Shown here: positions 1 to 50,313 of the stretch, in pieces
How positions within the stretch are numbered: the stretch's first letter is position 1
Layout: every line of letters starts with the position of its first letter
Origin: a virus
Taxonomy: Duplodnaviria; Caudoviricetes
Direction: 5' to 3' (one strand)
Length of the DNA: 50,313 nt
Virus record (IMG/VR): IMGVR_UViG_3300037424_001491
Location: 1-50,313 of that record
The notes under the pieces: generated by a model
Seen by the model: the letters and a program-made list of their open reading frames with translations, nothing else
Told to the model about the DNA's origin: nothing
The model's database searches: none
Translations under genes and position numbers: made by a program

Positions 1-2
1 AC

Positions 3-239
3 GTGGCCCACCTCATCGGCGTGGAGGCCGCTGTCCGGCTCGCCGAAGAGATGGGCGGCGCTCACCTCTACATCCCCCAGGCGGATAGCGCCCTTGCCGC
101 TGCCCGCCGCGCGTGGATCCTCGCGAATCGTCACCTCGCCCCTCGCGAACTCTCCCGCTCCACTGGCTACTCCGAACGTCAGGTATACCGGATATTGGAG
201 GAAAAGGAAGAGGACGAGCGGCAGGGGGGCTTGTTTTAG
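3..239 (+). CDS. mor: Mor/C-family transcription activator of the outer Mu-like prophage (5' truncated by window)
   Basis: IGVEAAVRLAEEMGGAHLYIP...TGYSERQVYRIL; paralogous to 19709-20011 (LGTETAIRLAERFGGVHLYI...TGLSERQVYRL). Confidence 0.85.
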   Translation: MAHLIGVEAAVRLAEEMGGAHLYIPQADSALAAARRAWILANRHLAPRELSRSTGYSERQVYRILEEKEEDERQGGLF

Positions 240-277
240 GGGGGTGGGATTGTTAGAATAATTGCCGCACCCTTTTT

Positions 278-307
278 TCAACATGACATATAATGATTAT
301 CAACATG
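278..307 (+). promoter_or_regulatory. Putative island promoter: TATAAT flanked by TCAACATG direct repeats
   Basis: TATAAT 289-294; TCAACATG at 278-285 and 300-307; no good -35. Confidence 0.4.
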
Positions 308-318
308 GGGGGTTTTGA

Positions 319-633
319 TTGACTGAGACTGTTCTGAAAGGTTTCATAAAGCAGGGGATTGAACCTCAAGTTATTGTAGAGGAGGCAATTCCTAGTAAGG
401 GCAAGCCCGCCCAGAAAAGCCTTGGATCTACCACGGTCTTTATTGTTAATATATGTCTTTGGGAGAAAACCTCTACCATTGAGGCATCGAGGGGTGGCCC
501 GCGTGAATGGAGAGACTTCAATAAACTAGTAAAATGGCTGAAGTCTTTAGGGATTCATGACTACAAGGTAAGACTCTTCGCTCCCGAGGATCTTATTAAT
601 CAAACCCTAGCCCTCTCAAATACTGGGGAATAG
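319..633 (+). CDS. Small hypothetical protein, possibly a DNA-binding regulator of the operon
   Basis: 104 aa ORF ending 1 bp before sspB; RGGPREWRDFNKLVKWLKSLGI segment. Confidence 0.55.
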   Translation: MTETVLKGFIKQGIEPQVIVEEAIPSKGKPAQKSLGSTTVFIVNICLWEKTSTIEASRGGPREWRDFNKLVKWLKSLGIHDYKVRLFAPEDLINQTLALSNTGE

Positions 634-634
634 C

Positions 635-1576
635 ATGACAACTATAGAAGCCAAAAGAAATAGTCAAATAATCCACCCTATATTTGCCAGGCACGAAACC
701 TTTCATCCCCGATTTGGGTGGTTAAAGAAGGGGTTTGATAAAGCATCAGAGCAGCCTGATCTTTTTACGGATGATATGGCCCCATCTATTCTTGGCGTTG
801 GGAAAAATATGGTTAAAGCCATCAAGTACTGGTGCATTGCGTATAAAGTACTTGAAGAAGTCCAAGAAAGAGGCAAGGGGAGAATCCTTGTCCCTACCGC
901 TTTTGGCAATAGGTTATTGAATAACGACGGGTGGGATCCGTACCTTGAAGACCCTGCGTCACTTTGGCTTTTGCATTGGAGCCTACTCTCACTTCCAAAC
1001 TATGCTACAACATGGCACTACACTTTTAATGTTTTTAACCGCCCCAGCTTTATGGTGGAAGATATCCAACATGGGATATTTGAGTATGCAAAAAGAGAAT
1101 TTCCCAACAGCCGCATAACAGCTTCTTCTGTGGCTAGAGATGTGAGCTGTCTTCTGAGAATGTATGTCGAAGACTCATCTAGGCAGCTGACTGAGGACTC
1201 GATTGATAGCCCATTTACGGATCTTGGGCTTGTTAAGCAATATGGAGACAGGAGACATTTTGCCATGAGTATTGGGCCTAAGATTGGGCTAACTCATGAA
1301 ATCATTGCGGCCTCTTGCCTAGACTTTGCTGCCACAGCTGAAGAGGGGGCAAAAACAATATCAATAGCTCGCCTTACATATGAGCAGAATAGTCCAGGCC
1401 AGTGCTTTAAGCTTACAGAGGGCATAATTAGTGAAGCAATTGAGAGCGTTGCCATAGCCGTTGAGGATATTGAGATGTCCAAAACTGCTGGCCTTGTGCA
1501 GATGGCCTTCAGTCGAGACCCTTACTCCATCATCAATGATGTGCTAAACGGATATTACAAAAGGATCCATAACTAA
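635..1576 (+). CDS. sspB: DUF4007 family protein, SspB-like
   Basis: FARHETFHPRFGWLKKG, LGVGKNMVKAIKYW and WDPYLEDPASLWLLHW motifs; followed by ATPase and PAPS reductase genes. Confidence 0.85.
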   Translation: MTTIEAKRNSQIIHPIFARHETFHPRFGWLKKGFDKASEQPDLFTDDMAPSILGVGKNMVKAIKYWCIAYKVLEEVQERGKGRILVPTAFGNRLLNNDGWDPYLEDPASLWLLHWSLLSLPNYATTWHYTFNVFNRPSFMVEDIQHGIFEYAKREFPNSRITASSVARDVSCLLRMYVEDSSRQLTEDSIDSPFTDLGLVKQYGDRRHFAMSIGPKIGLTHEIIAASCLDFAATAEEGAKTISIARLTYEQNSPGQCFKLTEGIISEAIESVAIAVEDIEMSKTAGLVQMAFSRDPYSIINDVLNGYYKRIHN

Positions 1577-1577: not shown

Positions 1578-4500
1578 ATGCCCATCTTCGATCAGATAAA
1601 AATCAAGAGAAGATATACAAGATCGGTAAATCTTGAAAGAGATCTTGAGGTAGCCGATAGTGTCAATGGTTACATTATCACGCCGAAGATTCAAAAAGTT
1701 ATTGACCGCTTTGTTGAAGCTCTTACTACACCCGATGCGACAAGAGCCTGGACTATAACTGGCGTCTACGGCACAGGGAAATCCGCATTCGCCCATTTCC
1801 TTTCGGCCCTGTGTTCTTCTAGGGACGATGAAATACGGAAAAATGCAGTCAAGATTTTTAATGCTTCCGGTGGCAGCAGTCGTAAGCTCTCATTGAACCT
1901 ACACGATAAGGGCCTAATAAAGGCAGTAATAACAGCACAAAGAGAGCCGATTGCACATTCGTTGATACGTGGACTTAAGTATGGCGCGGATAGGTACTGG
2001 GCTAGTGCCCCTGGCCCCAAAAGCGAAGTGCGTTCAAGATTGGATAAGCTCTATGTTGATCTATCTGCCGGAAGAGTTATCGAAAACGCCCAAGTATTAA
2101 GTCTGATAAAGGGCTTGGCGTCTAGCTCAAGGGCTGGGATGATCATTGTTATAGATGAACTCGGGAAGAACCTGGAGTATTCCGCACAACACCAATCTTC
2201 AAGCGATTTATACTTGCTTCAGCAGATCGCTGAACTGCCTGCCGGGGCGAAGAAGCCGAAAGTCTTTTTCCTTGGATTGCTCCACCAAGCTTTTTATGAA
2301 TACTCCCATGGGCTTGCTACAACTCAAAGAAATGAATGGATAAAGATTCAAGGCAGGTTTGAAGATATACCGCTTTCAGAATCCACGTCTAGACTTGTGC
2401 ATCTGATTGCAAATGCGATTGACTATGACGCAGCCACTCCAGAGGTAAAAAGGGATCTAGTGAAGTGGGGGGCTACATGGAGGAAGGAGTTAGAGAAGCT
2501 TGAACTTGCAAAGTCCTCTTTAGCCGAATTGCCAGAGCTTTATCCATGTCACCCAATCACAGCCTTAACTCTCCCTACACTTTGCAACAAGTTTTCACAG
2601 AACGATAGGACTCTTTTTACATTTCTTGCCAGCGATGAGCCACATTCATTTAAGAGCTTTTTAAAGTCCACTGAGCTTTCTCTTGAAATGCCCACCTTAA
2701 AGCCCCACCAACTTTACGACTACTTTATTGAGACCGCAGGGATTAATATGGCCTCGCGCTCCCATATGCAAAGGTGGTTAGAGGTGCAAGGGCGCATTGA
2801 CGAGGCAAGCGGCTTGGATGAAGATTCAATCGTTGCCCTTAAGACTATCGGAATACTGAATCTTGTTTCGGGGGCCGCGCCGATAAAAGCGTCATATAAG
2901 ATTCTTAATCTTGCGCTTGTTGATAGTCCATCATCCAAGGCTTATGGGCAATGGGATAACATCATAGAGGGTCTTATTAGTAAAGGGCTTGTCACCTATC
3001 GACGTTTTAATGACGAATATCGTCTTTGGGAAGGAAGCGATTTCGATATTGAAGATGCGGTTTCTGAAGAAAAACAGAAGATTCACGATACCCTCTCTGA
3101 AATTCTTTCTTCCGTGTCCCCGTTAAAGCCAGTCATTGCAAGGAGGCATAGTTATAAAACGGGTGGCATAAGATATTTTGAGAGAGCTTACTCGGAATCC
3201 ATTCCTAACCCCTTGCGATGCAAGTCACCCGATGCTGATGGGATTATTCTATACATCACAGGCGCATTACCAGAAAAGTCAGAAATCCAATCATATACTA
3301 CAGATGGGCGACCCGCTGTGATTATCTGTGCATCAGGGCTTGAATCTTTACGTGTTGCGAGCCGTGAGTATAAAGCCCTATTGAGCATTAGCGAGAATAG
3401 AAGCGAGCTGCAATCAGATGGGGTCGCACGTAAAGAGGTGCGGCAGCGCCTCTTTGTGGCAGAGAAGATTCTGAATGATACATTGAGTATAGCTTTTGAT
3501 TATTCCGGCGAGGCTAAGTGTTGGGTTCTTGGCAAGCAAATAAAGCTATCAGGGACACCTGATTTCAACTCCATGCTGTCTAATATTTGCGATCAGGTTT
3601 ATAGCAAGGGACTTGTCTTATGGAACGAACTAATCAATAGACGTGAATTATCCTCTCAAGGGGCAAAAGCAAGGCGAGAGCTTATTGAAGCCATGCTAAG
3701 CAATGATCACCTTGAGAGACTCGGTATAGTTGGCAATGGGCCTGAGTACAGCATGTATGAATCAGTTCTCAGAAGAACAGGTATACATGCCAAGAGAGAG
3801 ACGGCCTGGTGCATCGACAAGCCCGATAGTGCCTCTGGCATCATGGATGTATGGTCAACAATTGAGGACTTCTGCGTAAACTCTACCGAAACTGCGAGAA
3901 GCTTAGATGGGCTATACGAATTACTTAAATGCCCCCCTTATGGCGTAAAGCCGGGCATTATCCCTGTCCTGCTGCTTGCTGTTATTCAATATCATTCCGA
4001 TTACTTAAGTGTTTACATCGAGGGCTCTTATATCCCAGTTCTCGGGCCAGAGCATTTCGAGCTCCTCGTGAAGAAGCCTGAACTATTCGCAGTGAAATAC
4101 TTCCAGATATCTGGCCTTAAAAGGCAATTGTTCGAGGAGCTGACGGAAATTTTCTCTGCTACGAAGATATCTCCAAAGGGTTTAAGAAACGCTACCCTCT
4201 TAGGGATAGTTAACCCTCTTGTTAAGTTCGTTCAAAAACTTTCAAAGTATAGCCTTCAGGCTGATACTGTCAGCGATGAGGCCAAAGCCGTCAGGAAGGC
4301 ATTGATCGAAGCAAAGGATCCCGATGACCTTCTATTCCGAGCGCTGCCCCAAGCTTGTGGATTTCCTTTTATTGATGCTCATGCCTCTTCAGACAGCAAG
4401 CTAATCGTTTCCTTCAAGAAGAGTCTTATCCAAACCTTGCAGGAGCTTCAGCTCTCATATGATCGTGTTCTTTCATACGGGCAGGTGCTTTTGTCTAATG

Positions 4501-5039
4501 CTTTTTCAGCCCAGCGTGACTTGCAAGGGGTCAGAGAGTACATGAGAGCGATTGCCGGGCGCGTCAACGCAAATACACAGGTTGTCGAACTGAACCTGAA
4601 GCGATTTATCCAGGCGATTATTGAAACAAATTCAAGTGATAAAGCTTGGCTTGAGTCTGTGCTAATGGTAATTGCCGACAAACCAGTTGAGTCATGGACG
4701 GATACGGACAAATTAACCTTTGAAGTAAAGCTGGGAGACCTTATTAAGCGCTTTAAAAACGTAGAGGCGATCATTGATCTCTCTCCTGTGGACAAGAAGG
4801 GCATTGACGCTCAGAAACTCACCATCACTCATCAGGATGGAAGAGAGTTTAGTGAAGTGCTCTGGCTTGAGGAAAAAGAAAAAGCAGAGGTCGCCTCCAT
4901 CATATCAAAGATAAAGCCATATCTCACGGGGAATGATAAGATCAATAAAGCAATCCTGAGTGCCATTATTGAGGAGATCATTCCTAAAGATATATCAGAG
5001 CAGTCCGAATCTAAGAACAAGAAGAAGCATCATGGCTAA
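1578..5039 (+). CDS. sspC: Large P-loop ATPase, SspC-like (BrxC-related)
   Basis: RSVNLERD, Walker A GVYGTGKS, Walker B IVIDELGK, EWIKIQGRF, YPCHP, QNDRTLFTFL, PPYGVK. Confidence 0.85.
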   Translation: MPIFDQIKIKRRYTRSVNLERDLEVADSVNGYIITPKIQKVIDRFVEALTTPDATRAWTITGVYGTGKSAFAHFLSALCSSRDDEIRKNAVKIFNASGGSSRKLSLNLHDKGLIKAVITAQREPIAHSLIRGLKYGADRYWASAPGPKSEVRSRLDKLYVDLSAGRVIENAQVLSLIKGLASSSRAGMIIVIDELGKNLEYSAQHQSSSDLYLLQQIAELPAGAKKPKVFFLGLLHQAFYEYSHGLATTQRNEWIKIQGRFEDIPLSESTSRLVHLIANAIDYDAATPEVKRDLVKWGATWRKELEKLELAKSSLAELPELYPCHPITALTLPTLCNKFSQNDRTLFTFLASDEPHSFKSFLKSTELSLEMPTLKPHQLYDYFIETAGINMASRSHMQRWLEVQGRIDEASGLDEDSIVALKTIGILNLVSGAAPIKASYKILNLALVDSPSSKAYGQWDNIIEGLISKGLVTYRRFNDEYRLWEGSDFDIEDAVSEEKQKIHDTLSEILSSVSPLKPVIARRHSYKTGGIRYFERAYSESIPNPLRCKSPDADGIILYITGALPEKSEIQSYTTDGRPAVIICASGLESLRVASREYKALLSISENRSELQSDGVARKEVRQRLFVAEKILNDTLSIAFDYSGEAKCWVLGKQIKLSGTPDFNSMLSNICDQVYSKGLVLWNELINRRELSSQGAKARRELIEAMLSNDHLERLGIVGNGPEYSMYESVLRRTGIHAKRETAWCIDKPDSASGIMDVWSTIEDFCVNSTETARSLDGLYELLKCPPYGVKPGIIPVLLLAVIQYHSDYLSVYIEGSYIPVLGPEHFELLVKKPELFAVKYFQISGLKRQLFEELTEIFSATKISPKGLRNATLLGIVNPLVKFVQKLSKYSLQADTVSDEAKAVRKALIEAKDPDDLLFRALPQACGFPFIDAHASSDSKLIVSFKKSLIQTLQELQLSYDRVLSYGQVLLSNAFSAQRDLQGVREYMRAIAGRVNANTQVVELNLKRFIQAIIETNSSDKAWLESVLMVIADKPVESWTDTDKLTFEVKLGDLIKRFKNVEAIIDLSPVDKKGIDAQKLTITHQDGREFSEVLWLEEKEKAEVASIISKIKPYLTGNDKINKAILSAIIEEIIPKDISEQSESKNKKKHHG

Positions 5040-5841
5040 GAAGGTAAGGCATATTTTAGGGCTTTCGGGTGGCAAGGATAGTGCGGCCCTTGCGGTCTAC
5101 CTTCACAATAGAGTCCCTGACATTGAGTATTTCTTCTGTGATACGGGCAAAAACTGCGAGCTACCAGAGACCTATGAGTTTCTAGATAGGCTGAAAGCTC
5201 GCCTTGGCATAAAGATTACTTACCTGAGTGCAGAAAGAGGTTTTGATCATTGGCTGAAAGTCTACAATGGCTTCTTGCCCTCTGCCGTGGCTCGATGGTG
5301 CACAAAACAGCTCAAGATCATCCCACTTGAGAAATTCGTTGGCGATGATGAGGCCATAAGCTACATCGCCATTAGAGCCGATGAGGACAGGGATGGCTAT
5401 GTTTCTTCTAAAGAAAACATAAACCCCGTTTTCCCATTCAAAGATGATGGGCTCGTTAAGGATGATGTGTATCGCCTCCTGGAAGAGAGCGGGATCGGCA
5501 TGCCGAAGTATTATGAATGGCGGTCACGCTCTGGATGTTACTTCTGCTTCTTCCAGAGGAAAATTGAATGGATCGGACTACATGACCACCACCCAGATCT
5601 ATTCAAAAAGGCTCAAGCATATGAGACTGAACATTCCGATGGCCGCAAATTCACGTGGAACGATAATGAGACACTGCAAGAGCTTATTGGAAGAAGAGAT
5701 TCAATAGAAGCTGAACACCATGCGGCTGTAGACAGACTAAAGAGTAAGAATCTGATCAAAGCAAACTCTCCCCTTGTGCGGACTCTAGGTGCCCTGGATG
5801 ATGAAGAAGACTTTAACCCGTGCGCTGTCTGCCACTTATAG
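5032..5841 (+). CDS. sspD: PAPS-reductase family protein, SspD-like
   Basis: PP-loop SGGKDS, RWCT, RSGCYFCFFQR, C-terminal CAVC; ATG 5032 overlaps the sspC end. Confidence 0.85.
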   Translation: MAKKVRHILGLSGGKDSAALAVYLHNRVPDIEYFFCDTGKNCELPETYEFLDRLKARLGIKITYLSAERGFDHWLKVYNGFLPSAVARWCTKQLKIIPLEKFVGDDEAISYIAIRADEDRDGYVSSKENINPVFPFKDDGLVKDDVYRLLEESGIGMPKYYEWRSRSGCYFCFFQRKIEWIGLHDHHPDLFKKAQAYETEHSDGRKFTWNDNETLQELIGRRDSIEAEHHAAVDRLKSKNLIKANSPLVRTLGALDDEEDFNPCAVCHL

Positions 5842-6198: not shown

Positions 6199-6239
6199 TA
6201 TGGGGGAACACGACAGGTAAGTGCCTGAAAACACGACAA
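6199..6239 (+). repeat. Left terminal inverted repeat of the inner prophage
   Basis: 26/41 ungapped matches to the reverse complement of 41682-41722; CRCGAC at offsets 11-16 and 34-39 at both ends. Confidence 0.8.
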
Positions 6240-6293
6240 ATGGGGCTCGGGATTCTTTACACTTACTTTACAGTTACCTAACAAGAACAAATT

Positions 6294-6313
6294 TATCAAA
6301 CGGTCGTTGATCC
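6294..6313 (+). repeat. Subterminal dyad (ATCAA-N7-TTGAT), left copy
   Basis: TATCAAACGGTCGTTGATCC is 18/20 identical to the reverse complement of 41637-41656. Confidence 0.75.
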
Positions 6314-6683
6314 GTTACCGTCAAAGCTCAATACCCTCCTCTAACCACGAGCCAGTATATCAGAGTAGACGCTTCCTCTCGCCGCCCGCCTCGGATCCGC
6401 CGTACACAGTCGGGCGGCGCGCCCCCTATAATCATCGCAAGTGGCTGTGGGGCCACCGCAGTACGAGTCGCCGCTCGCCGTCGCGCGGGCCTGCCGGGTA
6501 GACGTGCCATTGGGCGCGTCGGATACGCGGACTGACCAGTCCGCAGCATGTGTCAATACGGCAAAGGTTGAAGGCAAAGGTGGTCGCAATCTGCGACCGG
6601 TTCCCGACCGAGCTTCCCTCTCCCTCCCTGCCGCCTCGTGTGTCTGTGCAGGAAGAGTCGTCGCGCGGGCCTGACTGGATGGG

Positions 6684-6712
6684 TTGAGTCCCCGCCACTT
6701 TCGTGTTACAAT
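6684..6712 (+). promoter_or_regulatory. Sigma70-like promoter of the lipoprotein moron
   Basis: TTGAGT-17 bp-TACAAT with extended TG. Confidence 0.65.
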
Positions 6713-6740
6713 GCGGCATCACGCCGACTGGAGGGATGGA

Positions 6741-7394
6741 ATGAAGAGGTTGATCTTAATTGCCGTGCTACTGGTTATGCTGGCTGCGTGTGGTCCGCCG
6801 AAGATGATAACACCGACGATGGAGTCATTACAAATCAAAACTGGAGTGACTCAAACTGTAACTGTTGGGAGCCCACTGTACGTAAAGGGGCACGTGAATA
6901 AGCTGCCAGCGGTACACGCGCTGGAGGATTTCACCCATGAAACCATAGGGGCGACGTATAATATACAGGTGGGCGCGACCTACCCGTGCAGGTTTACTGA
7001 TACAAATGACGACCTCTTGTGTGAAGTAATGAAGGGCGCCGTCTACCCTCACTGTGTTGTTGTGGACAGCGCTGGCACAGCCCTCGGATTTAAAAACTGT
7101 TGGGCTGGCGCTTCGCTCAGGTTGCCTGAACCGCGCAAGCTTTTTGAGATAGACTCTGCGATCGTGGATTTTGGCTCTTCAACATCCGAACTTCTCTATA
7201 ATGGCCGCTCGGGCAGTACGATCAAGTTCTCGTATCGTGAGTTTTTCGATAACATGGCCCGGCCAGCCTTTACGCAGGACTTGGTCTATGACCTTGACGA
7301 GTCTTCCGAGATCGCGTTTAAGGCCATGCGCATTAAGGTGCTCAGCGCCACGAATTCAACCATCACCTATACCATCCTCGACGGCAGCCATTAA
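6741..7394 (+). CDS. Lipoprotein (moron; possible superinfection exclusion)
   Basis: Signal peptide MKRLILIAVLLVMLAAC with lipobox; own promoter and terminal hairpin. Confidence 0.75.
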   Translation: MKRLILIAVLLVMLAACGPPKMITPTMESLQIKTGVTQTVTVGSPLYVKGHVNKLPAVHALEDFTHETIGATYNIQVGATYPCRFTDTNDDLLCEVMKGAVYPHCVVVDSAGTALGFKNCWAGASLRLPEPRKLFEIDSAIVDFGSSTSELLYNGRSGSTIKFSYREFFDNMARPAFTQDLVYDLDESSEIAFKAMRIKVLSATNSTITYTILDGSH

Positions 7395-7404
7395 AGCCAG
7401 CGCA

Positions 7405-7441
7405 CACTGGCGTGGGGTGGCATCTCCGCCCCACGCCAGTG
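7405..7441. terminator. Hairpin between the convergent lipoprotein and repressor genes
   Basis: CACTGGCGTGGGGTGG-CATCT-CCGCCCCACGCCAGTG, 16-bp stem with one G-T. Confidence 0.6.
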
Positions 7442-7442
7442 C

Positions 7443-8060
7443 TTAAATCCTTACCCTCCGCCAGACGCCCACCACCTTACCCATGATCCGGTAGTGATCG
7501 TTCGGTCTAAACGCCGGGAACTCCGTGTTGTCGCTCACGAGCCACGGCTCTCCGTCCTTTTCCCTATAGCGCTTGAGCATGGTCTCTCCCCACTCGTCGT
7601 TCACCACGACCACGTCGCCGCTCCTCACGTCCTCCCGAGGCTTCAATAGAACGTAATCGCCGTCCTTAACCGTCGGGCTCATACTCTCTCCCCTGACCAC
7701 CAAGGCGTAGCTCCCGGGCGGGGCATCCGGGAGGCTCACGTAATCCACGATGAGGTCTTGCGGCACCTGGTCGGGGAAGCCCGCTGGCACGCGCCCGAGC
7801 ACTGGCACGCTCACCACCGGCACTGCGGACGGGATGGGCGGGGCCGTATGCATCTCACCCTTACCTGTCAGTATCCAATCAATGGATGTATGCACAATCG
7901 TGGCAATGCGCTGTAGGCTTTGGGCTCCGGGCTCTCGCTCTCCTGAGAGGTAGCTTTGTAGTGTCCTATAGGGAATTCCGCATGTTGCAGCGAAGTCTTT
8001 AACATTAAGGCCCGTTTCCTTTATTGCGCTCGCAAGGCGTGAAGATACACTATCGTGCAT
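7443..8060 (-). CDS. CI/LexA-like repressor (XRE HTH + S24 peptidase)
   Basis: N-terminal HTH, VPAG cleavage site, VRGESMSP catalytic Ser, MLKR catalytic Lys. Confidence 0.92.
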   Translation of the reverse strand: MHDSVSSRLASAIKETGLNVKDFAATCGIPYRTLQSYLSGEREPGAQSLQRIATIVHTSIDWILTGKGEMHTAPPIPSAVPVVSVPVLGRVPAGFPDQVPQDLIVDYVSLPDAPPGSYALVVRGESMSPTVKDGDYVLLKPREDVRSGDVVVVNDEWGETMLKRYREKDGEPWLVSDNTEFPAFRPNDHYRIMGKVVGVWRRVRI

Positions 8061-8097
8061 TTTTCGCTTGGCTCCTGTGCACGATTGTGTGTATCAT
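8045..8097. promoter_or_regulatory. Repressor operators and early promoter
   Basis: Related 16-bp dyads ATACACTATCGTGCAT (8045-8060), GTGCACGATTGTGTGT (8077-8092) and ATGCACAATCGTGGCA (7890-7905); TTGGCT-18 bp-TATCAT. Confidence 0.6.
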
Positions 8098-8107
8098 CCC
8101 TCAATAA

Positions 8108-8853: not shown

Positions 8854-8861
8854 TACGACAC

Positions 8862-37965: not shown

Positions 37966-37966
37966 T

Positions 37967-40717: not shown

Positions 40718-40730
40718 TAGTAAAGCCAGA

Positions 40731-41654: not shown

Positions 41655-41722
41655 TATAATCAAATCCGACCGGCTACCGTATTGTCGCGTTTCCAAGCGC
41701 AGTTAAGTCGCGCGCCGCTATA
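41637..41722 (-). repeat. Right end: subterminal dyad (41637-41656) and terminal IR (41682-41722)
   Basis: Reverse complement TATAGCGGCGCGCGAC...GGAAACGCGACAA mirrors the left end. Confidence 0.8.
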
Positions 41723-41725: not shown

Positions 41726-42013
41726 CCTGCGTATGCATATTTAATGTACGTTGGACAAACAACTCGTCAAAATCTAAGAAAACGCTTTGCCCAGTATCTA
41801 GAAGAGCAAGCAGGAACAAAGAAAAGTCCGCGACCAAAAGTCCAATATATCCTTAGAAAATATGCAGATAATATTTACTTCATTTGCATGCCACTAGATG
41901 CTCAGTTGGATCCTACTACTGTTGAAAATGAACTCCTTAAAGCGATGAAGCCACCCATGAACGATAGATTCCCAGCTGAGGTTAGCAGGGTGTATAGAGG
42001 TATCTTACCGTGA
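41726..42013 (+). pseudogene. GIY-YIG nuclease, C-terminal fragment
   Basis: YVGQT, LRKRF, VENELL and PPMND motifs; GTGA overlap with the DGQHR gene. Confidence 0.85.
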
Positions 42014-43308
42014 CAAAAGCATCCACCGATATAATATGGCTACCGTCCCTAAGGGCTCAGATGGGGGATTGGATTTATTACATTTCATACATGAAATTGA
42101 GTGACATAGCCCAACGGGTTAGGTATGCGGAGGAAATTCATACGAGCAAGACCCTGAACGATCTACTCCAGAGGACGCTAACCTCTCGCTCACAGAAAAT
42201 TGCGGATTACCTCGTTAAGCAAGAGCAACGTTTCTTTAACACATTGATCATTGGGGTTTATGACGGATCGCCCAGTTGGTATGCATTGTCAGTAAACAAG
42301 AACCAGCGCTTTGACCCATCTGACATTCCCGAAGATCTTGAGGGGGCTATCGGATATTTATCTCTCACGGGCAGGGAAAAGCTATTTGCCATCGATGGGC
42401 AGCATAGAGTGGCCGGCATTCATAGGGCCATCAAGCGCAATGCTTCAATTGGCGATGATGAGGTCTCCGTGATATTCCTCTCTGCCAAAAAAGATCCCGA
42501 AAGCATGAAACGTACAAGGCGATTGTTTAGCACTTTAAACCGTTACGCAAAAGCCGTTTCAAAGCGGGATATTATTGCCTTAGACGAAGACGATACTGTA
42601 GCCATTATAATAAGACAATTGCTTGATGAGTATCCTCTATTTTATGACGAGAGGATTAATACTCGCGTGATTGGCAAAAGCATCCCCTCCAATGATAAAG
42701 CAAGCATCACGACTCTAGTCGCTTTATATGATGCGGTAAATATTTACTTGCCTGATTCAAATGACTCTAAATGGAAGGCCTTCCTTAGTGTAAGACCTAA
42801 CGAAAATATTATTCATGAATATTATCAAAAGACTGTTGAACTTTTAGACTGCCTACAAAGACATTTTCCTGAACTACGCCATGTCTCAAAAGATCATACT
42901 CAAACAATAAAATACCGGCATTCAGAGGGTGGGCATCTGCTCTTTAGGCCTGTCGGCTTATTGATGATTGCGCATGTCATAAAACTCTGCGTGCAACATG
43001 GGTTCACGTTAAATGAAGCTGTGAGGAGAATTTCTAAAGTAAATTTAGATTTATCTGCAAACCCTTGGGCTGGCTTGTTGTGGGAGTCAATTAAAAAACG
43101 AATGATCACACGTAAGGAAAATCAACAAGTCGCAATAGTTCTTCTCTTTTACATAATTGGGGGGGACTTGGCTCATATTCGTACAAATCCCACTAAGCTG
43201 CTAGAGCAATACGGTAGCGCAATAAACTGGGACGAGGAAGACTTGGGGAGCCTTAAATTACCAAGAAGGTTGCGATTTAGGCAACAAGGGAGGGGCGAAA
43301 ATGGATGA
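42010..43308 (+). CDS. DGQHR-domain (DndB/ParB-like) protein
   Basis: LQRTL, RFFNTLI, LFAIDGQHRVAGI, RRLFSTLNRYAKAVS. Confidence 0.85.
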   Translation: MTKASTDIIWLPSLRAQMGDWIYYISYMKLSDIAQRVRYAEEIHTSKTLNDLLQRTLTSRSQKIADYLVKQEQRFFNTLIIGVYDGSPSWYALSVNKNQRFDPSDIPEDLEGAIGYLSLTGREKLFAIDGQHRVAGIHRAIKRNASIGDDEVSVIFLSAKKDPESMKRTRRLFSTLNRYAKAVSKRDIIALDEDDTVAIIIRQLLDEYPLFYDERINTRVIGKSIPSNDKASITTLVALYDAVNIYLPDSNDSKWKAFLSVRPNENIIHEYYQKTVELLDCLQRHFPELRHVSKDHTQTIKYRHSEGGHLLFRPVGLLMIAHVIKLCVQHGFTLNEAVRRISKVNLDLSANPWAGLLWESIKKRMITRKENQQVAIVLLFYIIGGDLAHIRTNPTKLLEQYGSAINWDEEDLGSLKLPRRLRFRQQGRGENG

Positions 43309-43609
43309 GAAGATCGGAGAGGCTGTGAAACGTCTCATTGAAGAACAATTTTATTACGTTCAATACCCTAAGGCCCAGGAAACTTCCATATGGGTGGATA
43401 GAGATGGCAGGGTCACCCTTATTGATAAGCTTGACTCCGATCACCTAGAGAGATGCATACATTTAGTCGAGAGGGATATACTTAATTTCAAGAAAACATG
43501 GAAATCAGATATGCGCTACGCTGAACTTGAAGAAATCATAATAACAAGGGCAGAGGCATTGCTTTCCACAATGAAATCTGAATTCCGCAGTAGAGCTGAT
43601 AACATTTAG
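43301..43609 (+). CDS. Hypothetical protein
   Basis: Overlapping co-oriented 102-aa ORF with a GGAGG RBS. Confidence 0.6.
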   Translation: MDEKIGEAVKRLIEEQFYYVQYPKAQETSIWVDRDGRVTLIDKLDSDHLERCIHLVERDILNFKKTWKSDMRYAELEEIIITRAEALLSTMKSEFRSRADNI

Positions 43610-43619: not shown

Positions 43620-46061
43620 ATGGATGGCCTCTTTAGACAGCTTTACAATGCCCCAACTGAAGATGCTGTTAACAGTGTCCTCCAATCCAATCCTATTTTT
43701 CACGATCCTGCCAATTGGCAACCTTACGGAGATACCGAAAGCAATTTCAGCGTAATCGAAAACCAGCAGGCTAATCCTGTAGCTGCCCTTGTCGAAAAGC
43801 TTACCAATTCAATTGACGCGCTCCTTATGAAGAAGTGCCTTGAAGCAGGGATTGACCCAAGATCACACGACGCTCCCCGGACTATGGACGCAGCAGTGCG
43901 CATGTTCTATAACTACGAGAACTTCGATGTTTCAGAGTATAGACGGCAGGTAGCTGAGGACATACAGATTCTGGCTGACCCCAATAGCCCCAAAATGAAC
44001 ACCTCCCTCATCATTTATGACAATGGAGAGGGTCAGCACCCTCAGGCCTTCCCTGGCACTTTCTTGTCGCTACTGCGTGGCAACAAAAACGAGATTAAAT
44101 TCGTTCAAGGCAAATACAATATGGGCGGAGCTGGTGCTGTAGTCTATTGCGGCGAAAATAGATATCAGCTTGTCGCATCAAAGCGCTTTGACAATTCAGG
44201 CAACTTCGGTTTTACCTTGGTCAGAATCCACCCTTTGACAGCGGAAGAAGCTGACACGAAGAAAAACACCTATTACGAATACTTTTGTCCAGAGGGTAGG
44301 ATTCCAGAGTTCCCTATAGATGAGCTTGAATTGAATCTCTTTAATCGGAAATTTCGGACGGGATCTCTCATTAAGCTGTATTCCTATGATCTGCCCCCAG
44401 GCAGTAAGTCCGTTATTTCAAGAGACCTAAATCAGAGCGTTAATGAATATCTTCATAACCCCGCCCTGCCCATTTACATCATTGACCGTAAGGAAAGATA
44501 CCCGAAGGATACGGGTCTTGAGCGCATTATGTTTGGGCTTTCCAATAGGCTACAAGACCAAAAAAACAAGTATGTGGATCGTCAGATATCACTCGTGATC
44601 AATGGGAATAAAGAAGTGGGGGATATCAAGATTTACGCGACTCTTTTTAAGGTCAAGAGCGAAGAAAAGTCAGTCAAGGAATTCAAACAGACAATCCAGA
44701 ACGAATTCTGCAAAAACAATATGAGCGTCGCCTTTAGCCTCAACGGGCAAGTCCATGGCTTCTATACTTCCGAGTTCATCACAAGAGCGTTGAAATGGAA
44801 GCTATTTAAGGACTATCTCCTCATACATGTTGACTGCACACACCTCTCGCTCCATTACAGGAACAACCTTTTTATGGCATCCAGAGATCGCCTTAAGAAC
44901 GGGAAAGAGGCTGATCACATCAGGCGGCTGCTTGCTGATCACATAAGGAAAAGTGAATTAAGCGACATCTACAAGCAAAGGAAAGACTCGTTCTCCGCAG
45001 ACACCAGTGATGCAAATGATCTACTGAAGTCCTTTTCCAAGGGTTTGCCGTTAAATCCTGAAATGCTGAAGTTACTGAAGCAAACCTTTAAACTTGAGGA
45101 GCCCGACAACTCCAAAAAGGAAAAGGATACTAAGCAAAATAAGTCAAAGAAGCCTCCCCCTGATAAGGAACCGTTCGTTTCCAAGAGATATCCATCTGTG
45201 TTTAATATTAACGGAAAGCCTAACAATGAAGGAAAGGTCATGAAAGGCATCCCCATGCCTGGCGATAAAACCATAATGTTCAGCACTGATGTGGAGGATG
45301 AATACTTTGATCGCATTAAAGACAGGGGTGACCTGAAGCTCTTTGTCCTCAACCGTGGGACTAATGATGCAGGAGGAGGAACCGCCCCAGGTGCACCAAG
45401 GGAGATTGAGGATTTTTTCCAGGTCGTCAAATCCAATCCGCATGAGGGAACCATTAGGGTTAATCTGCAGCCAAGGGGTACGCTTCAAGTGGGGGAAGAA
45501 ATCGAGATCAGGGCGGATCTTAGTTCGGTTGAGACACCTGATGAGCCCTTGCAAGCGGTTTTTTACGTGAAAATAGAACAAATGCAGGTTAAGGATCCTA
45601 AGCCCGAAGAGCCTGAAGTTCCTCAGATAGGCTTGCCCGAAATGATCCTGGTCTATAAAGATGACAAAGAAGGCGTCACTACATGGAGCACTCTGGAAGA
45701 GCACGGCATATCCATGGATGATTACGAGATCATGGCTACGATTGCCAATGACAAAGATGAACTTGAGAAGATATTCATTAATATGGACAGCAGCCTAATC
45801 AAGTCATATAAATCAAAGCTTGATGGCGATGAAGCCTTACGTGTTGCCGATAATAAATATGCCTCTCAAGTCTATTTCCATACGCTATTCCTGTACTCAA
45901 TCCTTAAGCAAAAAAACTATGGCTTTTCAGTTGATGGTGATAATAATACCGACAAACCCGTTGAGATTGAAGACGTTTTGCGTGACCTGTTTAGGTCTAG
46001 CTATGGTGAGTTTCTCTTGCGGTTCGGCGGGACAGAGGAACTTATTGCCGCTATAGATTAG
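43620..46061 (+). CDS. GHKL (MORC/HSP90-like) ATPase domain protein
   Basis: LVEKLTNSIDA (N box), YDNGEG (G1), QGKYNMGGAG (G2); long uncharacterised C-terminus. Confidence 0.75.
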   Translation: MDGLFRQLYNAPTEDAVNSVLQSNPIFHDPANWQPYGDTESNFSVIENQQANPVAALVEKLTNSIDALLMKKCLEAGIDPRSHDAPRTMDAAVRMFYNYENFDVSEYRRQVAEDIQILADPNSPKMNTSLIIYDNGEGQHPQAFPGTFLSLLRGNKNEIKFVQGKYNMGGAGAVVYCGENRYQLVASKRFDNSGNFGFTLVRIHPLTAEEADTKKNTYYEYFCPEGRIPEFPIDELELNLFNRKFRTGSLIKLYSYDLPPGSKSVISRDLNQSVNEYLHNPALPIYIIDRKERYPKDTGLERIMFGLSNRLQDQKNKYVDRQISLVINGNKEVGDIKIYATLFKVKSEEKSVKEFKQTIQNEFCKNNMSVAFSLNGQVHGFYTSEFITRALKWKLFKDYLLIHVDCTHLSLHYRNNLFMASRDRLKNGKEADHIRRLLADHIRKSELSDIYKQRKDSFSADTSDANDLLKSFSKGLPLNPEMLKLLKQTFKLEEPDNSKKEKDTKQNKSKKPPPDKEPFVSKRYPSVFNINGKPNNEGKVMKGIPMPGDKTIMFSTDVEDEYFDRIKDRGDLKLFVLNRGTNDAGGGTAPGAPREIEDFFQVVKSNPHEGTIRVNLQPRGTLQVGEEIEIRADLSSVETPDEPLQAVFYVKIEQMQVKDPKPEEPEVPQIGLPEMILVYKDDKEGVTTWSTLEEHGISMDDYEIMATIANDKDELEKIFINMDSSLIKSYKSKLDGDEALRVADNKYASQVYFHTLFLYSILKQKNYGFSVDGDNNTDKPVEIEDVLRDLFRSSYGEFLLRFGGTEELIAAID

Positions 46062-46128: not shown

Positions 46129-46183
46129 TGACAATGTCACAAGACTGAACCGCCCCCTATCCATAGACTTAGGTCTATGGATA
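46129..46183 (+). promoter_or_regulatory. Late promoter of the outer prophage
   Basis: TGAC-AAT-GTCACAAGACT; TATCCATAGAC-TTAG-GTCTATGGATA; homologous to 20020-20077. Confidence 0.7.
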
Positions 46184-46593
46184 CCGCGAACCGCAGACGA
46201 AACCAAAAGCATTCACCGCCAGGAGCTGCCGGGGCGAACGGGGCTCGTCCCGGCGGCTCCGCCTCCAATCCCCATCAAGACCTTAACAACTTCGACCGCT
46301 GGAGCCTCGACCGCATAGAGGCTGGTGCCGTCTGCATTGTTCCTTGCACTGCCCCTTCCATGTCACCGGAGCCGCTGCCGGGGGGCCGCAGATGCGAGAG
46401 GACTGCGAGCGAAGACGTAGCAACGCTACTTCGAGCGAGCATGACCGAGCAGGTGGGGTGCATCCGGCAGCGGCGGAAAAAGAGGGGTCTCGAAGGGGAA
46501 CATGGTTCCCCTTCGCAGCAGAAGTGCATCCCCCTTCGTGGAGACTCCATCTGTCTCCAGTGCTATGACGCTGCCAGGGAGGCCCGCTCATGA
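46177..46593 (+). CDS. First late ORF of the outer prophage, 37 aa longer because of an in-frame element
   Basis: Homologue of 20071-20376 (138 vs 101 aa). Confidence 0.55.
   Translation: MDTANRRRNQKHSPPGAAGANGARPGGSASNPHQDLNNFDRWSLDRIEAGAVCIVPCTAPSMSPEPLPGGRRCERTASEDVATLLRASMTEQVGCIRQRRKKRGLEGEHGSPSQQKCIPLRGDSICLQCYDAAREARS
46371..46515 (+). repeat. Palindromic element plus CGAAGGGG hairpin
   Basis: Closing stem GCCGCTGCCGG/CCGGCAGCGGC; central GTAGCAACGCTAC; CGAAGGGGAAC-ATG-GTTCCCCTTCG. Confidence 0.8.
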
Positions 46594-47075
46594 GCGCGAT
46601 CAAATCCATTGTGCTCCATTGCTCGGACTCCACACACGGCTGCGCGCGGGAGATCCGCCGCTGGCATAGGGAGCGCGGGTGGAGCGATATCGGATACCAC
46701 TTCGTGATCGAGAACGGCACGCCCGTGCAAGGGCTCACCATCGAAGCGCTGGACGGCTCAATCGAATGCGGGCGCATCCTGGACGGCTCCCCGGATCTTA
46801 TCGGAGACGAGATCGGCGCGCACGCCCTCGGACACAATGCGGACTCAATTGGCGTCTGCCTGATAGGCCGGGACGCATTCACCGACGCCCAGTGGCGCGC
46901 GCTCCTCGGCCTGCTTATGGATCTCTGCACCATCTACCACATCGACCCGGACAACGTGATCGGGCATTACGAGACAGAGAGCGGGCGGGCGCAGGGGAAG
47001 ATATGCCCGAACTTCGACGTGCCCGCGTTCCGCGAGGTTCTCAAGCACGAGATGTACTCGGGAGGCAAGGCATGA
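46590..47075 (+). CDS. Endolysin amidase (outer prophage)
   Basis: Nearly identical to 20373-20858. Confidence 0.92.
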   Translation: MSAIKSIVLHCSDSTHGCAREIRRWHRERGWSDIGYHFVIENGTPVQGLTIEALDGSIECGRILDGSPDLIGDEIGAHALGHNADSIGVCLIGRDAFTDAQWRALLGLLMDLCTIYHIDPDNVIGHYETESGRAQGKICPNFDVPAFREVLKHEMYSGGKA

Positions 47076-47554
47076 GCCTGATCGCAGACATCTTCGCGGG
47101 GTCGCTCGGCTCCACTGTGGAGGCCATAGGCTCCACGGTCAAGAAGTTCGTGACCACGGACAAAGACCGCATGGCTATGCAAACAGAGCTGGAGGAGATC
47201 CTCCAGCGCCGCGACTCGGAGGTGGAGCAGACCATACGCACGGAGCTTGCGGCCAAGGAGCGTGTACTCGTGGCCGAGCTTCAGCAGGGCGATACCTTCA
47301 CCAAGCGCGCCCGGCCCTCGGTGGTCTACTTCGGGCTCGCGGCCATTACCGTGGATCTGGTCTTCCGCATCGGGATGGTCTTACGGGGCGTCCCGGTCTC
47401 CGAGATGCCGTCCACCTTTATTCCCACGGAGTTCTGGTACGCATGGGGCGGCATCGTCTCCACCTGGGTGATCGGGCGCTCGGCAGAGAAGCGCGGGGCG
47501 CGTAACAAGGTTACGGACTTCATCACGGGCGCTGGTTCGAGGTTGATCGATTGA
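47072..47554 (+). CDS. Holin (outer prophage)
   Basis: Nearly identical to 20855-21337. Confidence 0.8.
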   Translation: MSLIADIFAGSLGSTVEAIGSTVKKFVTTDKDRMAMQTELEEILQRRDSEVEQTIRTELAAKERVLVAELQQGDTFTKRARPSVVYFGLAAITVDLVFRIGMVLRGVPVSEMPSTFIPTEFWYAWGGIVSTWVIGRSAEKRGARNKVTDFITGAGSRLID

Positions 47555-47892
47555 GCGTGCAGCTGAATCCTCTTTACGCGGCGCTCATGAACGCGGGGGT
47601 GGGTGGGTTTATAGCGGTGCTCATCCTCGTGGGGCTCTACTACATCGTGCGGAGCCTCGGGAGCCGGTTCGTGGACAGTCAGGCCCGGCAGGCCGAGGCC
47701 CTCGGCGCGCAGGCGCAGGCCATGGCGAGCCTGAGTACTTCGGTGCAGAGGTTCATGGAACGCGACAACACGGAACATCGCGAGATGCTCGTATTACTGC
47801 GGCTGATCGCACAACACCAGCAAGAGCTGGACGAGGTAAAGCGTGAACACGAACACCGCAAGAAATCGGCGCATCCGCACTGCCCTGCTTGA
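47551..47892 (+). CDS. Membrane protein (outer prophage)
   Basis: Nearly identical to 21334-21684. Confidence 0.7.
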   Translation: MSVQLNPLYAALMNAGVGGFIAVLILVGLYYIVRSLGSRFVDSQARQAEALGAQAQAMASLSTSVQRFMERDNTEHREMLVLLRLIAQHQQELDEVKREHEHRKKSAHPHCPA

Positions 47893-48142
47893 GCTCCTCA
47901 AGACCGAGTACCCGGGGGCGCTTGACCTCAAGGCTCTCCGGTTCGCGCTCGACAGCCTCGGGTATCCCATGATGGAGGGCACGCTCACGGCCCACCTCAG
48001 GTATCTCGAAGAGAAAGGCTACGCGGAGCTGACCCGGCGGAAAGGCTTCGGGTTCGACATCGCGTTTGCCTCCCTCACTGCTGCGGGGTGGGATCTCCTC
48101 GACGGGCTCACCCATGACAAGGGCGTGGACGAGGAGCTGTAG
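47843..48142 (+). CDS. Mu gp26-like protein (outer prophage)
   Basis: Close homologue of 21626-21934. Confidence 0.7.
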   Translation: MNTNTARNRRIRTALLELLKTEYPGALDLKALRFALDSLGYPMMEGTLTAHLRYLEEKGYAELTRRKGFGFDIAFASLTAAGWDLLDGLTHDKGVDEEL

Positions 48143-48145
48143 GCC

Positions 48146-48615
48146 ATGGCCAACAAGGGAATCGGCACAGTGCATAACAAGGACCTCGCCTTCCGCGTCT
48201 ACCGCGAGATGGGGGCCAGAATCTCGGGGCAGTGGCTGATGAGGTCAACAAGCGCTACGGCTTCAGGCTCACGCGCCAGACCCTCGCCTCGTGGCGCGAC
48301 ACGGGCGACTGGGACGGTCGCATCCGCCGGGCAGACGCCCGCTGCCTTGCCATCGAGTCCACGGGCGTCTCCTATGACCAATACATGTTCAACGCGCTCC
48401 TGCGCCGCCTTGAGGCTTACGAGCGCTACTTCGACACACTCCCCGACTCTCAGGTGGACAACAATGCCCAGTGGGCCATGAACGACGTGGTCAAGAAGCT
48501 CGAAGCCCTCCTCAAGACCGTCCATATAAAGGAGATCGCCGAGGCGGCTCCGGGCGAGGAGCGCGAGCGGCTCGTGAGCCGGATACTCCGGGAGACCTAT
48601 GGGATCGAGCGCTAG
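48146..48615 (+). pseudogene. Terminase small subunit, frameshifted at G-run 48211-48215
   Basis: MANKG...DLAFRVYREMG continues in another frame as GQNLGAVADEV...ILRETYGIE, matching the inner TerS. Confidence 0.7.
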
Positions 48616-49953
48616 CCCGGTGCTTTTGCCCTACCAGCAGCGGTTCGTCAATGACCGCTCCCCGCTCAAGGTCTGGCTCGCCTCCCGCCAGATCGGCAAG
48701 TCCTTTGCCGTCTCCCTTGAGGCCGTGGACGAGGCACTTGCCGTGCGGTCAGACAATCTCATCGCTCACGCTCCGAGCGCCAGAGCAAGAGCGTGATAGG
48801 CAAGGTCAAGGCACACCTCCGCGTCTTAAACGCGCTCGCTGACGACGCCGTGGTCGAGGACAAGGCCCTCAAATCCACCGAGATCACGCTCCCCAATGGC
48901 TCGCTGATCGTGGGCCTCCCGGCAAGCCCGGACACGGTGCGCGGGTTCTCGGGCAATGTCTTCCTCGACGAGTTCGCGTTCCACCGCGACAGCGCCGAGA
49001 TCTGGAAGGCTCTCTACCCCACGGTCACGCGGGGCCACAAGGTGCGCATCACATCCACTCCCAACGGGCTCCAGAACATGTTCTACCGCCTCTGGGTCAA
49101 CGGGGAGGCGGGCTTCTCCCGCCACCTCACGGACATACACCAGGCAAAGGCCGACGGGCTCAAGATGGGTATCCAGCAGCTCCGGGCCGGTATCGCAAAC
49201 CCCGACGCATGGGCTCAGGAGTTCGAGTGCGAGTTCCTCGACGAGGCCACGGCATGGCTCCCCTTCGACCTCATCGCTGGGTGCGAAGACCAGCGCACTT
49301 CCACGGAGTTCAACGCGGACGATCATGCCCGCGAGAGCCAGCTCTACCTCGGGATGGACATCGCCCGCACCGGGCACTTGAGCGTGATCTGGGTCATTGA
49401 GAAGGTCGGCCCGCTCTACTGGACGCGCGCAATACGCACACTCCACGGGATCTCGTTCACCGAGCAGGAACGGGTGCTCGACGGGTTCATGGCGCACCCG
49501 GCCCTCCGCCGGGCGTGCATAGACGCCACGGGCATAGGCGCGCAGTTTGCCGAGCGCGCCCGCGAGCGTTTCGGTTCCCGGGTCGAGCCGGTGGTGTTCA
49601 CCCCTGCGGTCAAGGAAGACCTCGCCGTGACCGTCCGCCGGACATTTGAAGACAGGCAACTCAAGGTGCCAGCCGATAAGGCCGTGCGCGAGGATCTCCA
49701 CTCGGTCAAGCGGGTCGTGACCGTTGCCGGGCACTCGCGCTTCGATGCCGAGAGCACGGCTGAGGGCCACGCCGACCGCTTCTGGGCGCTCGGGCTCGCG
49801 CTCCACGGCGCTGCCCGCCCCAACGAGCCGGTCAGCTACGAGCAGATCATGGCCCGGCTCGGCAGATTCGGCAGCGGCACCGGAGAGGACGACCCCCACA
49901 GTTCACTCAGGCGTCCAAAGGAGCAGGGATCGGGAGGGCAGCGCACATGGTAA
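48599..49953 (+). pseudogene. Terminase large subunit, frameshifted near 48764
   Basis: The SRQIGKS part and the SRSERQS...LDEFAF...HADRFWAL part are in different frames; one base is missing after DNLI. Confidence 0.8.
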
Positions 49954-50084
49954 TCCGGTCTTTTCAAAAGAGGCCCGATTCGGGCAGGCGACCCTGTTCG
50001 CGCCTACAGAGGGGGCCTGTTTCCGGTTCCGGGGCGCTCCGGCGCGCTCATGGGCGTTATAACGCGAAAGCGAGGGCATAAACG

Positions 50085-50313
50085 GTGAGCCTTTTAGACC
50101 GCTATGGCCGTCCGGCCCGCAAAGACCGCCCCATCGAGGAGAAAATCGAACTCGGCGGCTCTCTCGCGCTCCGGCAGGCATGGAGTTCCTACCCCTCGGT
50201 CGGGCTCACCCCCGAGGGACTGGCCGAGATCCACCGCGAGGCGGACGCGGGCCATATCGCCCGGCAGGCCGAGATGTACGAGGAGATGGAGGAGAAGGAC
50301 GCGCAGGTGGGCG
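50085..50313 (+). CDS. Portal protein of the outer prophage (3' truncated by window)
   Basis: MSLLDRYGR...YPSVGLTPE...MYEEMEEKDAQVG aligns with the inner portal N-terminus. Confidence 0.85.
   Translation, partial: MSLLDRYGRPARKDRPIEEKIELGGSLALRQAWSSYPSVGLTPEGLAEIHREADAGHIARQAEMYEEMEEKDAQVG

Follow-up and report, generated by a model that had tools for sequence, protein, structure and literature searches.

Can a transposable phage of the Mu type settle within the genome of a relative, and what does it strike when it does? The question is raised by the IMG/VR virus record IMGVR_UViG_3300037424_001491 (Duplodnaviria; Caudoviricetes), a single contig of 50,313 bp that was analysed over its entire length and is referred to below as the window; the public runs in which its sequence occurs are sediment metagenomes. 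We consider it probable that the window contains a complete Mu-like phage (the inner phage) inside a GIY-YIG nuclease gene of an Ssp phosphorothioation cassette, the cassette itself being inserted in a second, related Mu-like phage (the outer phage). As a practical caution, what is filed here as a "single virus" combines two phages with a bacterial defence island. The nested layout had been proposed in an initial annotation made from the sequence alone, and every element named there was found in its place. The content of guanine plus cytosine (GC) changes at the same borders and divides the window into five blocks: a short high-GC start, a stretch of 44-46% up to about 6200 (measured over 1001-6000), one of 57-70% up to about 41700, one of 43-44% up to about 46100 (measured over 42001-46000), and one of 61-66% to the end.

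The inner phage and the GIY-YIG gene around it

The inner phage is a complete Mu-like transposable siphophage (Table 1). A DDE-type phage transposase is encoded next to a MuB-like AAA+ ATPase, and the Mu-type regulatory and head genes (Mor, Gam, GemA, Mu portal, MuF, protease and major head) were all found; none of the inner-phage genes scanned is broken. A Pfam search with the transposase gave no match. The mor gene does adjoin the late promoter and the lysis genes, as had been claimed. An imperfect terminal inverted repeat starts exactly at positions 6199 and 41722, with 11 of the first 16 positions matching when read by eye, and the two junctions originally called, 6198/6199 and 41722/41723, are where this repeat begins. 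The ends also have in common AAC(A/G)CGACA sites and a block of 23 nt.

On either side of the phage lies a fragment of a gene. A search with the right-hand fragment retrieved P0002 (163 aa, 67% identical) and P0003 (160 aa), which are both intact, and in the joint alignment the left-hand fragment corresponds to their residues 1-71 and the right-hand fragment to the remainder, with one His (codon CAC) common to both sides. Because the halves are colinear with the intact homologues and overlap by this single His, the alignment identifies them as parts of one GIY-YIG gene split by the inner phage; the insertion interrupts a gene, as at a non-specific site. The GIY-YIG assignment comes from the intact homologues, which match the N-terminus of UvrC (E 1.7e-4) and PF01541 (26.1 bits, for the homologue in locus L122 described below). 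Removal of the duplicated CAC gives exactly the empty-site string that the initial annotation had written out, and its statement that the invader disrupted a gene of the defence cargo was borne out, the gene in question being a conserved member of the cassette.

A near-identity search of a phage collection with the inner phage and the outer late region gave no match, and the exact left-end pattern has 0 matches in IMG/VR, and no second copy of the phage was found by which the ends could be fixed. Relatives of the inner transposase, 35-50% identical, occur in 3 of 301 genomes from the phylum of genome G001 (the one phylum searched), and may be regarded as a weak lead to the host range of the inner-phage lineage. 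Two prophages from that phylum (G170:C22, at about 80950-113700, and G112:C56) have a transposase 48-50% identical to that of the inner phage, and in one of the two the corresponding right-end position is taken by a Dam-like methylase that is 62% identical. When the ends and the duplication length of the related prophage in G170 were sought, no clear inverted repeat was found.

The Ssp cassette and the outer phage

The low-GC DNA on the two sides of the inner phage forms a cassette of 10.4 kb (44% GC) with eight genes, which encode a 104-aa protein, SspB, SspC, SspD, the GIY-YIG protein, a DGQHR/DndB-like protein, a 102-aa protein and a GHKL-like ATPase. SspB, SspC and SspD are all strongly matched in PADLOC. 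Among the downstream proteins only DndB has a PADLOC match, in a library that may lack SspFGH models, and these proteins were compared with SspE and SspFGH by description only. No match to the cysteine desulfurase SspA/IscS was found among the cargo open reading frames (ORFs) scanned, and the 104-aa protein matched no family in profile searches.

Eight related loci emerged when JGI contigs were scanned with the DGQHR protein. One of them, the L122 named above, contains the 104-aa gene, SspB, SspC, SspD, an uninterrupted GIY-YIG gene (159 aa), the DGQHR gene and the first half of the 813-aa ATPase gene, in the same order and with 37-81% identity; it has 41% GC and is chromosomal, flanked by a dinB-like polymerase gene and by ftsZ-ftsA-ftsQ-ddl-murB. 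Counterparts of both GIY-YIG halves are adjacent in four of the eight loci (L122, L123, L124 and L126), SspD is just upstream in three, and the ATPase follows in two (L121 and L122), as a 72-81% identical homologue placed directly after DGQHR. No homologue was seen in L125, L127 and L128, and L121 has only 169 nt upstream. From the recurrence in the L122 island and the adjacency in half of the loci, we take the cassette to be a bacterial defence island that is mobile and stems from a low-GC source, with the split gene among its regular members. The L122 copy is itself damaged, in a different gene: its ATPase homologue (11302-12820) consists of ORFs of 97 and 429 aa and lacks the C-terminal half.

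Neither a consensus scan of 240-318 for a sigma-70 promoter nor a scan of IMG/VR with SspC gave a result (in the latter, none of four pattern matches was confirmed), and a repeat search around the cargo borders found only short repeats at chance level. A pair of a G-run and a C-run was seen by eye at the two borders and is not established as a terminal repeat.

Outside the cassette, the window contains parts of a second Mu-like genome. The second mor reported by the initial annotation, at the left edge, encodes a protein that shares 52% identity with the inner Mor across 64 aa (E 8e-22), from which about 21 N-terminal residues are missing, judged by the 99-100-aa relatives P0134 and P0135; at the nucleotide level, blastn found no similarity between the two mor genes. 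The second set of late promoter, lysis, terminase and portal genes, which had been placed from 46129 onward, is likewise homologous to the first. Positions 46136-46359 are 84% identical to 20030-20259, and 46479-48213 are 90% identical to 20262-22002; farther on, the small terminase-like gene product is 31% identical, the terminase 68% at the nucleotide and 54% at the protein level, and the portal N-terminus 55%. A PF08765-type Mor is followed by a colinear late operon, as traced by tblastn with seven inner late proteins. In the inner phage the mor stop codon is at 20011, and the late-promoter homology begins 19 nt later, at 20030. Since the outer homology resumes at the counterpart of 20030, the cassette together with the inner phage replaces only the short mor-promoter spacer of a second, related, same-orientation Mu-like genome. 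The distance from mor to terminase is 2.4 kb in the inner phage and, after subtraction of the inner phage, 12.8 kb in the outer one; it is 1.3 and 2.2 kb in the distant relatives L001 and L013, those with a detectable mor among 120 loci. A scan of IMG/VR with the outer terminase gave 40 loci (best 57% identical, none close). From a scan of genome contigs with the amidase the best 80 of 245 were kept, of which the top one, 53% identical, is from a Nitrospirota metagenome-assembled genome and has no Mu-like neighbours. Of the pattern matches to a Mor alignment, 111 in IMG/VR and 598 in JGI contigs, none was confirmed.

The packaging genes of the outer phage are not all intact. By tblastn, one frame encodes residues 3-54 of its terminase large subunit, with the RQIGKS segment among them, and a different frame encodes residues 56-421; the break separates the Walker-A segment from the rest. 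An intact relative of 422 aa, P0005, 86% identical to the outer terminase, reads through the break site. The cargo adds about 29% to a 35.5-kb Mu-type genome, an addition that Mu headful packaging would presumably not tolerate. Given the frameshifted terminase, the size of the cargo and a nested composite far above one headful, the outer element as assembled is probably a defective, or at least damaged, prophage.

Table 1. Coordinates of the features in the window
Feature	Position	Strand	Basis or remark
Outer mor, 3' 78 codons	3..239	+	Frame 3; PF08765, 34.7 bits (cut-off 24.9); 5' end beyond contig edge
Left cargo border	240..318	.	GC falls just past mor stop codon (sequence, composition)
104-aa protein, first cassette gene	319..633	+	51% identical homologue at same position in L122
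SspB (DUF4007)	635..1576	+	PADLOC SspB, E 1.4e-109; PF13182, E 1e-92
SspC (P-loop protein, BrxC-like)	1578..5039	+	PADLOC SspC, 1260 bits
SspD (PAPS-reductase-like)	5047..5841	+	ORF open from 4960; PADLOC SspD, E 6.3e-111, from ORF residue 30; PF01507
GIY-YIG gene, N-terminal half, 71 codons	5986..6198	+	Aligns to residues 1-71 of intact P0002 and P0003
Inner Mu-like transposable phage	6199..41722	+	35,524 bp; same orientation as outer phage; terminal inverted repeat and gene matches
Inner left end	6199..6330	+	Terminal repeat TATGGGGGAACACGAC, two AACACGACA sites, 23-nt block common to right end
Inner repressor, helix-turn-helix and S24 peptidase, CI/LexA type	7443..8060	-	PF00717, E 1.9e-20; PF01381
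Inner transposase	12456..14048	+	phrog_310 transposase, E 3.6e-27
Inner MuB-like AAA+ transposition protein	14072..15067	+	phrog_296, E 1.3e-15; AAA_22
Gam	16286..16789	+	PF07352
GemA	19113..19712	+	PF06252
Inner mor	19709..20011	+	phrog_836 "late transcriptional activator", E 3.2e-7; 52% identical to outer Mor
Inner late promoter region and lysis block	20030..22002	+	Homologous to 46136-48213 (blastn 84%, 90%); amidase PF01510
Inner terminase large subunit, intact	22383..23672	+	PF03237 and PF17289
Inner Mu-type portal	23884..25554	+	PF06074, E 7e-102
Inner MuF-like protein, protease, major head, tail, tape-measure and fibre genes	25508..40717	+	Gene matches
Inner Dam-like N6-adenine methyltransferase, last gene, reads outward	40857..41654	+	PF02086; phrog_56
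Inner right end	41590..41722	-	Aligns with left end as inverted repeat
GIY-YIG gene, C-terminal half, 96 codons	41723..42013	+	First codon CAC repeats last codon of N-terminal half
DGQHR/DndB-like protein	42010..43308	+	TIGR03187, E 7e-30; PF14072
102-aa ORF	43301..43609	+	Between DGQHR and ATPase genes; no counterpart in L121 and L122, where those two genes abut
813-aa GHKL-type ATPase-like protein (lead only)	43620..46061	+	Nearest Atlas clusters carry HATPase_c_3; weak Topo VI-B match, E 0.0026
Outer late promoter region and lysis block	46129..48213	+	Amidase 46590-47075
Outer terminase large subunit, frame broken near 48763-48773	48608..49953	+	tblastn and sequence
Outer portal, N-terminal 74 codons, cut by contig end	50091..50313	+	55% identical to inner portal

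Several further features of the window deserve mention. Along the inner phage's left arm (6199-8060) the GC content is 53-57%, below that of the rest of the phage; a 236-aa ORF at 6684-7394, with a weak match to a lipoprotein signal, is possibly a lysogenic-conversion gene. A 333-aa protein of the early region (17811-18812) has a weak match to an HNH-endonuclease PHROG (phrog_1271, E 3.3e-8) and hints of a zinc ribbon, and the inner MuF-like head protein (25508-26773) ends in a PBECR2 domain of the nuclease type (PF18810, E 2.4e-19), which gives this virion protein a toxin-like extension. The perfect 24-nt hairpin GAAGGGGRACAYGGTTCCCCTTCG is present three times (17256-17397, 20275-20298 and 46370-46515), with 0 copies expected by chance. 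Two of the copies are preceded by an element of about 105 nt, 90% identical between them, which folds as a long hairpin (z -4.67), and the outer copy, when compared with the inner late leader, amounts to an insertion of 119 nt that lengthens the first late ORF. The element has no match in Rfam; a regulatory RNA is one possibility, a small mobile element of palindromic form another. The window as a whole gave no match in Rfam and tRNA scans.

Assembly support and rival explanations

A misassembly at one of the insertion junctions is the danger to which the initial annotation itself had pointed, and both junctions proved to be bridged by independent Logan contigs. The right junction is covered in run X1 by a Logan contig of 4,923 bp and depth 17.9, which spans 41234-46156 with 0 differences and reaches 28 nt into the late-promoter homology. 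For the left junction, exact look-ups of the 104-aa protein, the inner repressor, the transposase and the MuB-like protein each led to a single Logan contig, 14,995 bp long, from which the exact product of 15064-15261 is absent; if this is one contig, it starts between 73 and 266, spans the left junction and very probably takes in the mor stop codon as well. In addition, pieces of the inner phage, the cargo and the outer phage are present with 0 differences, at similarly low depths (3.6-5.7x), in run X2 from another study. At the junctions, X2, X3 and X4 have no cover or contribute small shares, and their uncovered parts are uninformative. As far as the record reaches, the complete inner prophage is flanked on both sides by one other prophage, which is cut at both contig ends.

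A number of observations weigh against the arrangement that we propose. The Logan contigs come from a different assembler, and X1 is perhaps the source sample of the window, so they represent a second assembler and not second data; the border between mor and the cargo (240-318) is only probably within the left contig, and X2 has no cover at 41699-42520. At 46220-48274 the summed depth rises to 60-150, with many variant joints and loose ends (46322-48151), and in four sediment or soil metagenomes (X1-X4) the lysis block, again with many variant joints, reaches several times the depth of the adjoining sequence; it looks like a module that a swarm of related Mu-like phages has in common. A stretch of 1.9 kb common to many phage variants links the cassette to the outer terminase. 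Given these joints and this depth, the link from the cargo (depth 17.9) to the terminase and portal region (48049-50313, depth 25-29) depends on the path taken by one assembler. The terminase frameshift might in principle be an assembly error. The record shows only 0.24 kb and 4.2 kb of the outer phage, ending inside the mor and portal genes, and its transposase, repressor and ends are absent from the record and were not found by the Mor-based scans of IMG/VR and JGI contigs. The features of the insertion itself are not all sharp: the 9-mer motif of the ends exceeds chance only weakly (4 matches where 1.28 would be expected, with 7 of 100 shuffles reaching 4), and the perfect duplication is CAC only, or ACAC if the last A of the phage is counted, so that a 5-bp duplication, the usual length for Mu, requires one mismatch. 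With regard to the initial annotation, two distinct, related Mu-like genomes are indeed nested, with the complete inner one in defence cargo that interrupts the outer one between mor and the late promoter, but the term "resident prophage" overstates what these two short, terminase-frameshifted pieces represent.

The assembly points lead to an explanation in which the inner phage really lies in the cassette, but the cassette does not lie in a phage: sequence common to the many related Mu-like phages of the sample would have led to the attachment of the mor fragment, the late region or both. This would agree with the joints and depth of the lysis-block variants, with the break of the Logan contigs at 46156, and with a 92% variant of the outer Mor on a contig of 948 bp that begins at the same residue, which suggests a branch point of the assembly graph at the window start; the depths in X1 (inner phage 26.3, cargo 17.9, outer late region 25-29) also differ, a weak hint as they are taken from contigs. 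Nonetheless, such a chimera appears very unlikely. The 4,923-bp contig starts in the inner phage, crosses the whole right half of the cassette and enters the late-promoter homology without a difference, and the left contig very probably includes 3' sequence of mor. A cassette of 44% GC between flanks of 61-66% that together rebuild a contiguous mor-promoter spacer is unlike a random misjoin, and the absence of nucleotide similarity between the two mor genes means that a repeat shared with the inner phage cannot have made the join.

How, then, would the inner phage have come to its present place? In the scenario that we favor, the transposase of an incoming phage and MuB-type target capture would have effected an ordinary integration after infection, into the small GIY-YIG nuclease gene of a horizontally acquired SspBCD-type cassette. 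The outer phage presumably conferred no target immunity, either because its ends were not recognized by the incoming transposase or because they lay at a distance of at least about 20 kb. The modification half of the system, SspBCD, would have been left intact and the nuclease gene destroyed, and the DGQHR and ATPase genes would now be separated by 35.5 kb from upstream promoters or transcription. The initial annotation had implied a paradox here. Self-protection does exist, as the available portions of PMC2837660 and PMC7350765 state that Mu shields both its entire genome and the DNA close to its ends against insertions of its own, but the paradox is weaker than was implied: phage Ab30 puts 0.4% of its transpositions into its own copies (PMC5977238, from the part available). 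Moreover, protection requires recognition of the resident ends by the transposase, and for a relative whose Mor and terminase are only 52% and 54% identical it may fail. With a leaky protection and possibly unrecognized ends, the nesting needs no special explanation. Heteroimmunity between the two phages, as the initial annotation had it, is a plausible conjecture. The inner transposition can be described as a chance or selected event into a related phage that was probably defective.

If the outer element were instead an intact, inducible, heteroimmune resident, whose defence island a superinfecting relative has just damaged, one would expect what is seen in its late genes, which except for the terminase look intact and encode proteins 83-93% identical to the inner ones; moreover, the intact terminase of P0005 suggests that the lineage is active now or was so recently, and lysogenization by the inner phage implies no repression by the resident. 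We find this unlikely, as the frameshift between the Walker-A segment and the rest of the terminase is present in an identical form in the X1 Logan contig over 48049-48954, with no indel variant listed there, the 10.4-kb cargo is very large for a headful-packaging genome of the Mu type, and the outer repressor and ends lie outside the record. No more favored is a selected insertion, in which the GIY-YIG/DGQHR/ATPase half would restrict unmodified incoming DNA and stable lysogens would have arisen only where the incoming phage, or a transposition at a later time, disabled the nuclease gene; this is also unlikely. It would account for the choice of the gene struck, a conserved nuclease-type component with the modification genes on one side and the DGQHR and ATPase genes on the other, and for the untouched modification genes, and it has a precedent in the removal of a CRISPR-Cas locus by DMS3 transposition in evolving lysogens (PMC11406979, in the text available). 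On the other hand, this is a single observation, and of the four downstream genes only DndB matched a PADLOC model. A chance hit is simpler, since transposable phages insert nearly at random. The boldest possibility is that a phage-borne third kind of Ssp system, with a restriction half of GIY-YIG, DGQHR and GHKL ATPase, occupies a cargo site between mor and the late promoter and excludes rivals, and that the nested rival survived by destroying the nuclease gene. We hold it to be decidedly improbable; if true, it would be a case of phage-versus-phage defence resolved by insertional knockout, and the insertion would be no accident.

Comparison with known systems

The proposed arrangement of a complete Mu-like phage in the cargo of another is neat and arises by known mechanisms; the mechanism is ordinary, and the outer phage is seen only in part, in a metagenomic contig. 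It nevertheless offers a natural case of a transposable phage inside a related one, in which Mu-type avoidance of self does not protect relatives. Two lysis blocks, 90% identical, in direct orientation and 26 kb apart, constitute a recombination substrate that could create hybrid phages. The outer genome would be one of the Mu type with a whole eight-gene phosphorothioation cassette from a low-GC donor, beside which the known accessory genes of such phages are tiny (ORFs of 34-100 codons in Pseudomonas Mu-like phages, according to the available part of PMC4378225). The cassette also indicates a conserved, uncharacterized partner module of SspBCD, made of GIY-YIG, DGQHR and GHKL-like ATPase proteins. 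In the open-access literature we found no account of nesting between two Mu-like phages, none of a transposable phage that carries an Ssp cassette, and none that describes the partner set of GIY-YIG and DGQHR.

The inner phage resembles the Mu, D3112 and B3-type phages (saltoviruses) in its leftward repressor, transposase, MuB-like ATPase, Gam, GemA and Mor, in the succession of lysis, terminase, Mu-type portal, MuF, protease, major head and siphovirus tail genes with a DNA-modification gene at the right end, and in its imperfect terminal inverted repeats and insertion inside a gene. It differs from them in having no close relative found and an exact duplication of 3-4 bp, not 5 bp.

The prophages within prophages studied in E. 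coli are reportedly lambdoid phages with integrases and attachment sites. Prophages inside prophages are known already, and the E. coli case shares with ours a prophage inside a related prophage (PMC8112680, from the portion available), whereas here the incoming phage transposed into cargo DNA, and only part of the outer phage is seen. The self-insertions of Ab30 similarly have a Mu-type genome as the target of Mu-type transposition; however, in the available part of PMC5977238 they are rare and belong to lytic replication, while here the nested copy is the majority form of the sample and the two phages differ, so that target immunity may simply not apply between them.

In the available text of PMC8092258, 83.9% of sspBCD clusters have no known partner, and Vibrio anguillarum has no sspA in its cluster, its role being filled by iscS. 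Compared with the SspABCD-SspE and SspBCD-SspFGH systems described there, the present cassette is alike in SspB, SspC and SspD and, as in V. anguillarum, in a cluster without sspA. It differs in its partners, namely the GIY-YIG, DGQHR/DndB-like, 102-aa and GHKL-like ATPase proteins, which do not agree with the descriptions of SspE or SspFGH given there, and in its location in a phage genome. The inactivation of a defence locus by a Mu-like phage is also known, as transposition of DMS3 removes the CRISPR-Cas locus of P. aeruginosa lysogens (PMC11406979, in the part available). The likeness to the present case consists in a Mu-like phage that inactivates a defence locus by transposition; with DMS3, however, the CRISPR locus of the host itself was deleted under self-targeting in the laboratory, whereas here a single gene of a phage-carried phosphorothioation cassette has been split.

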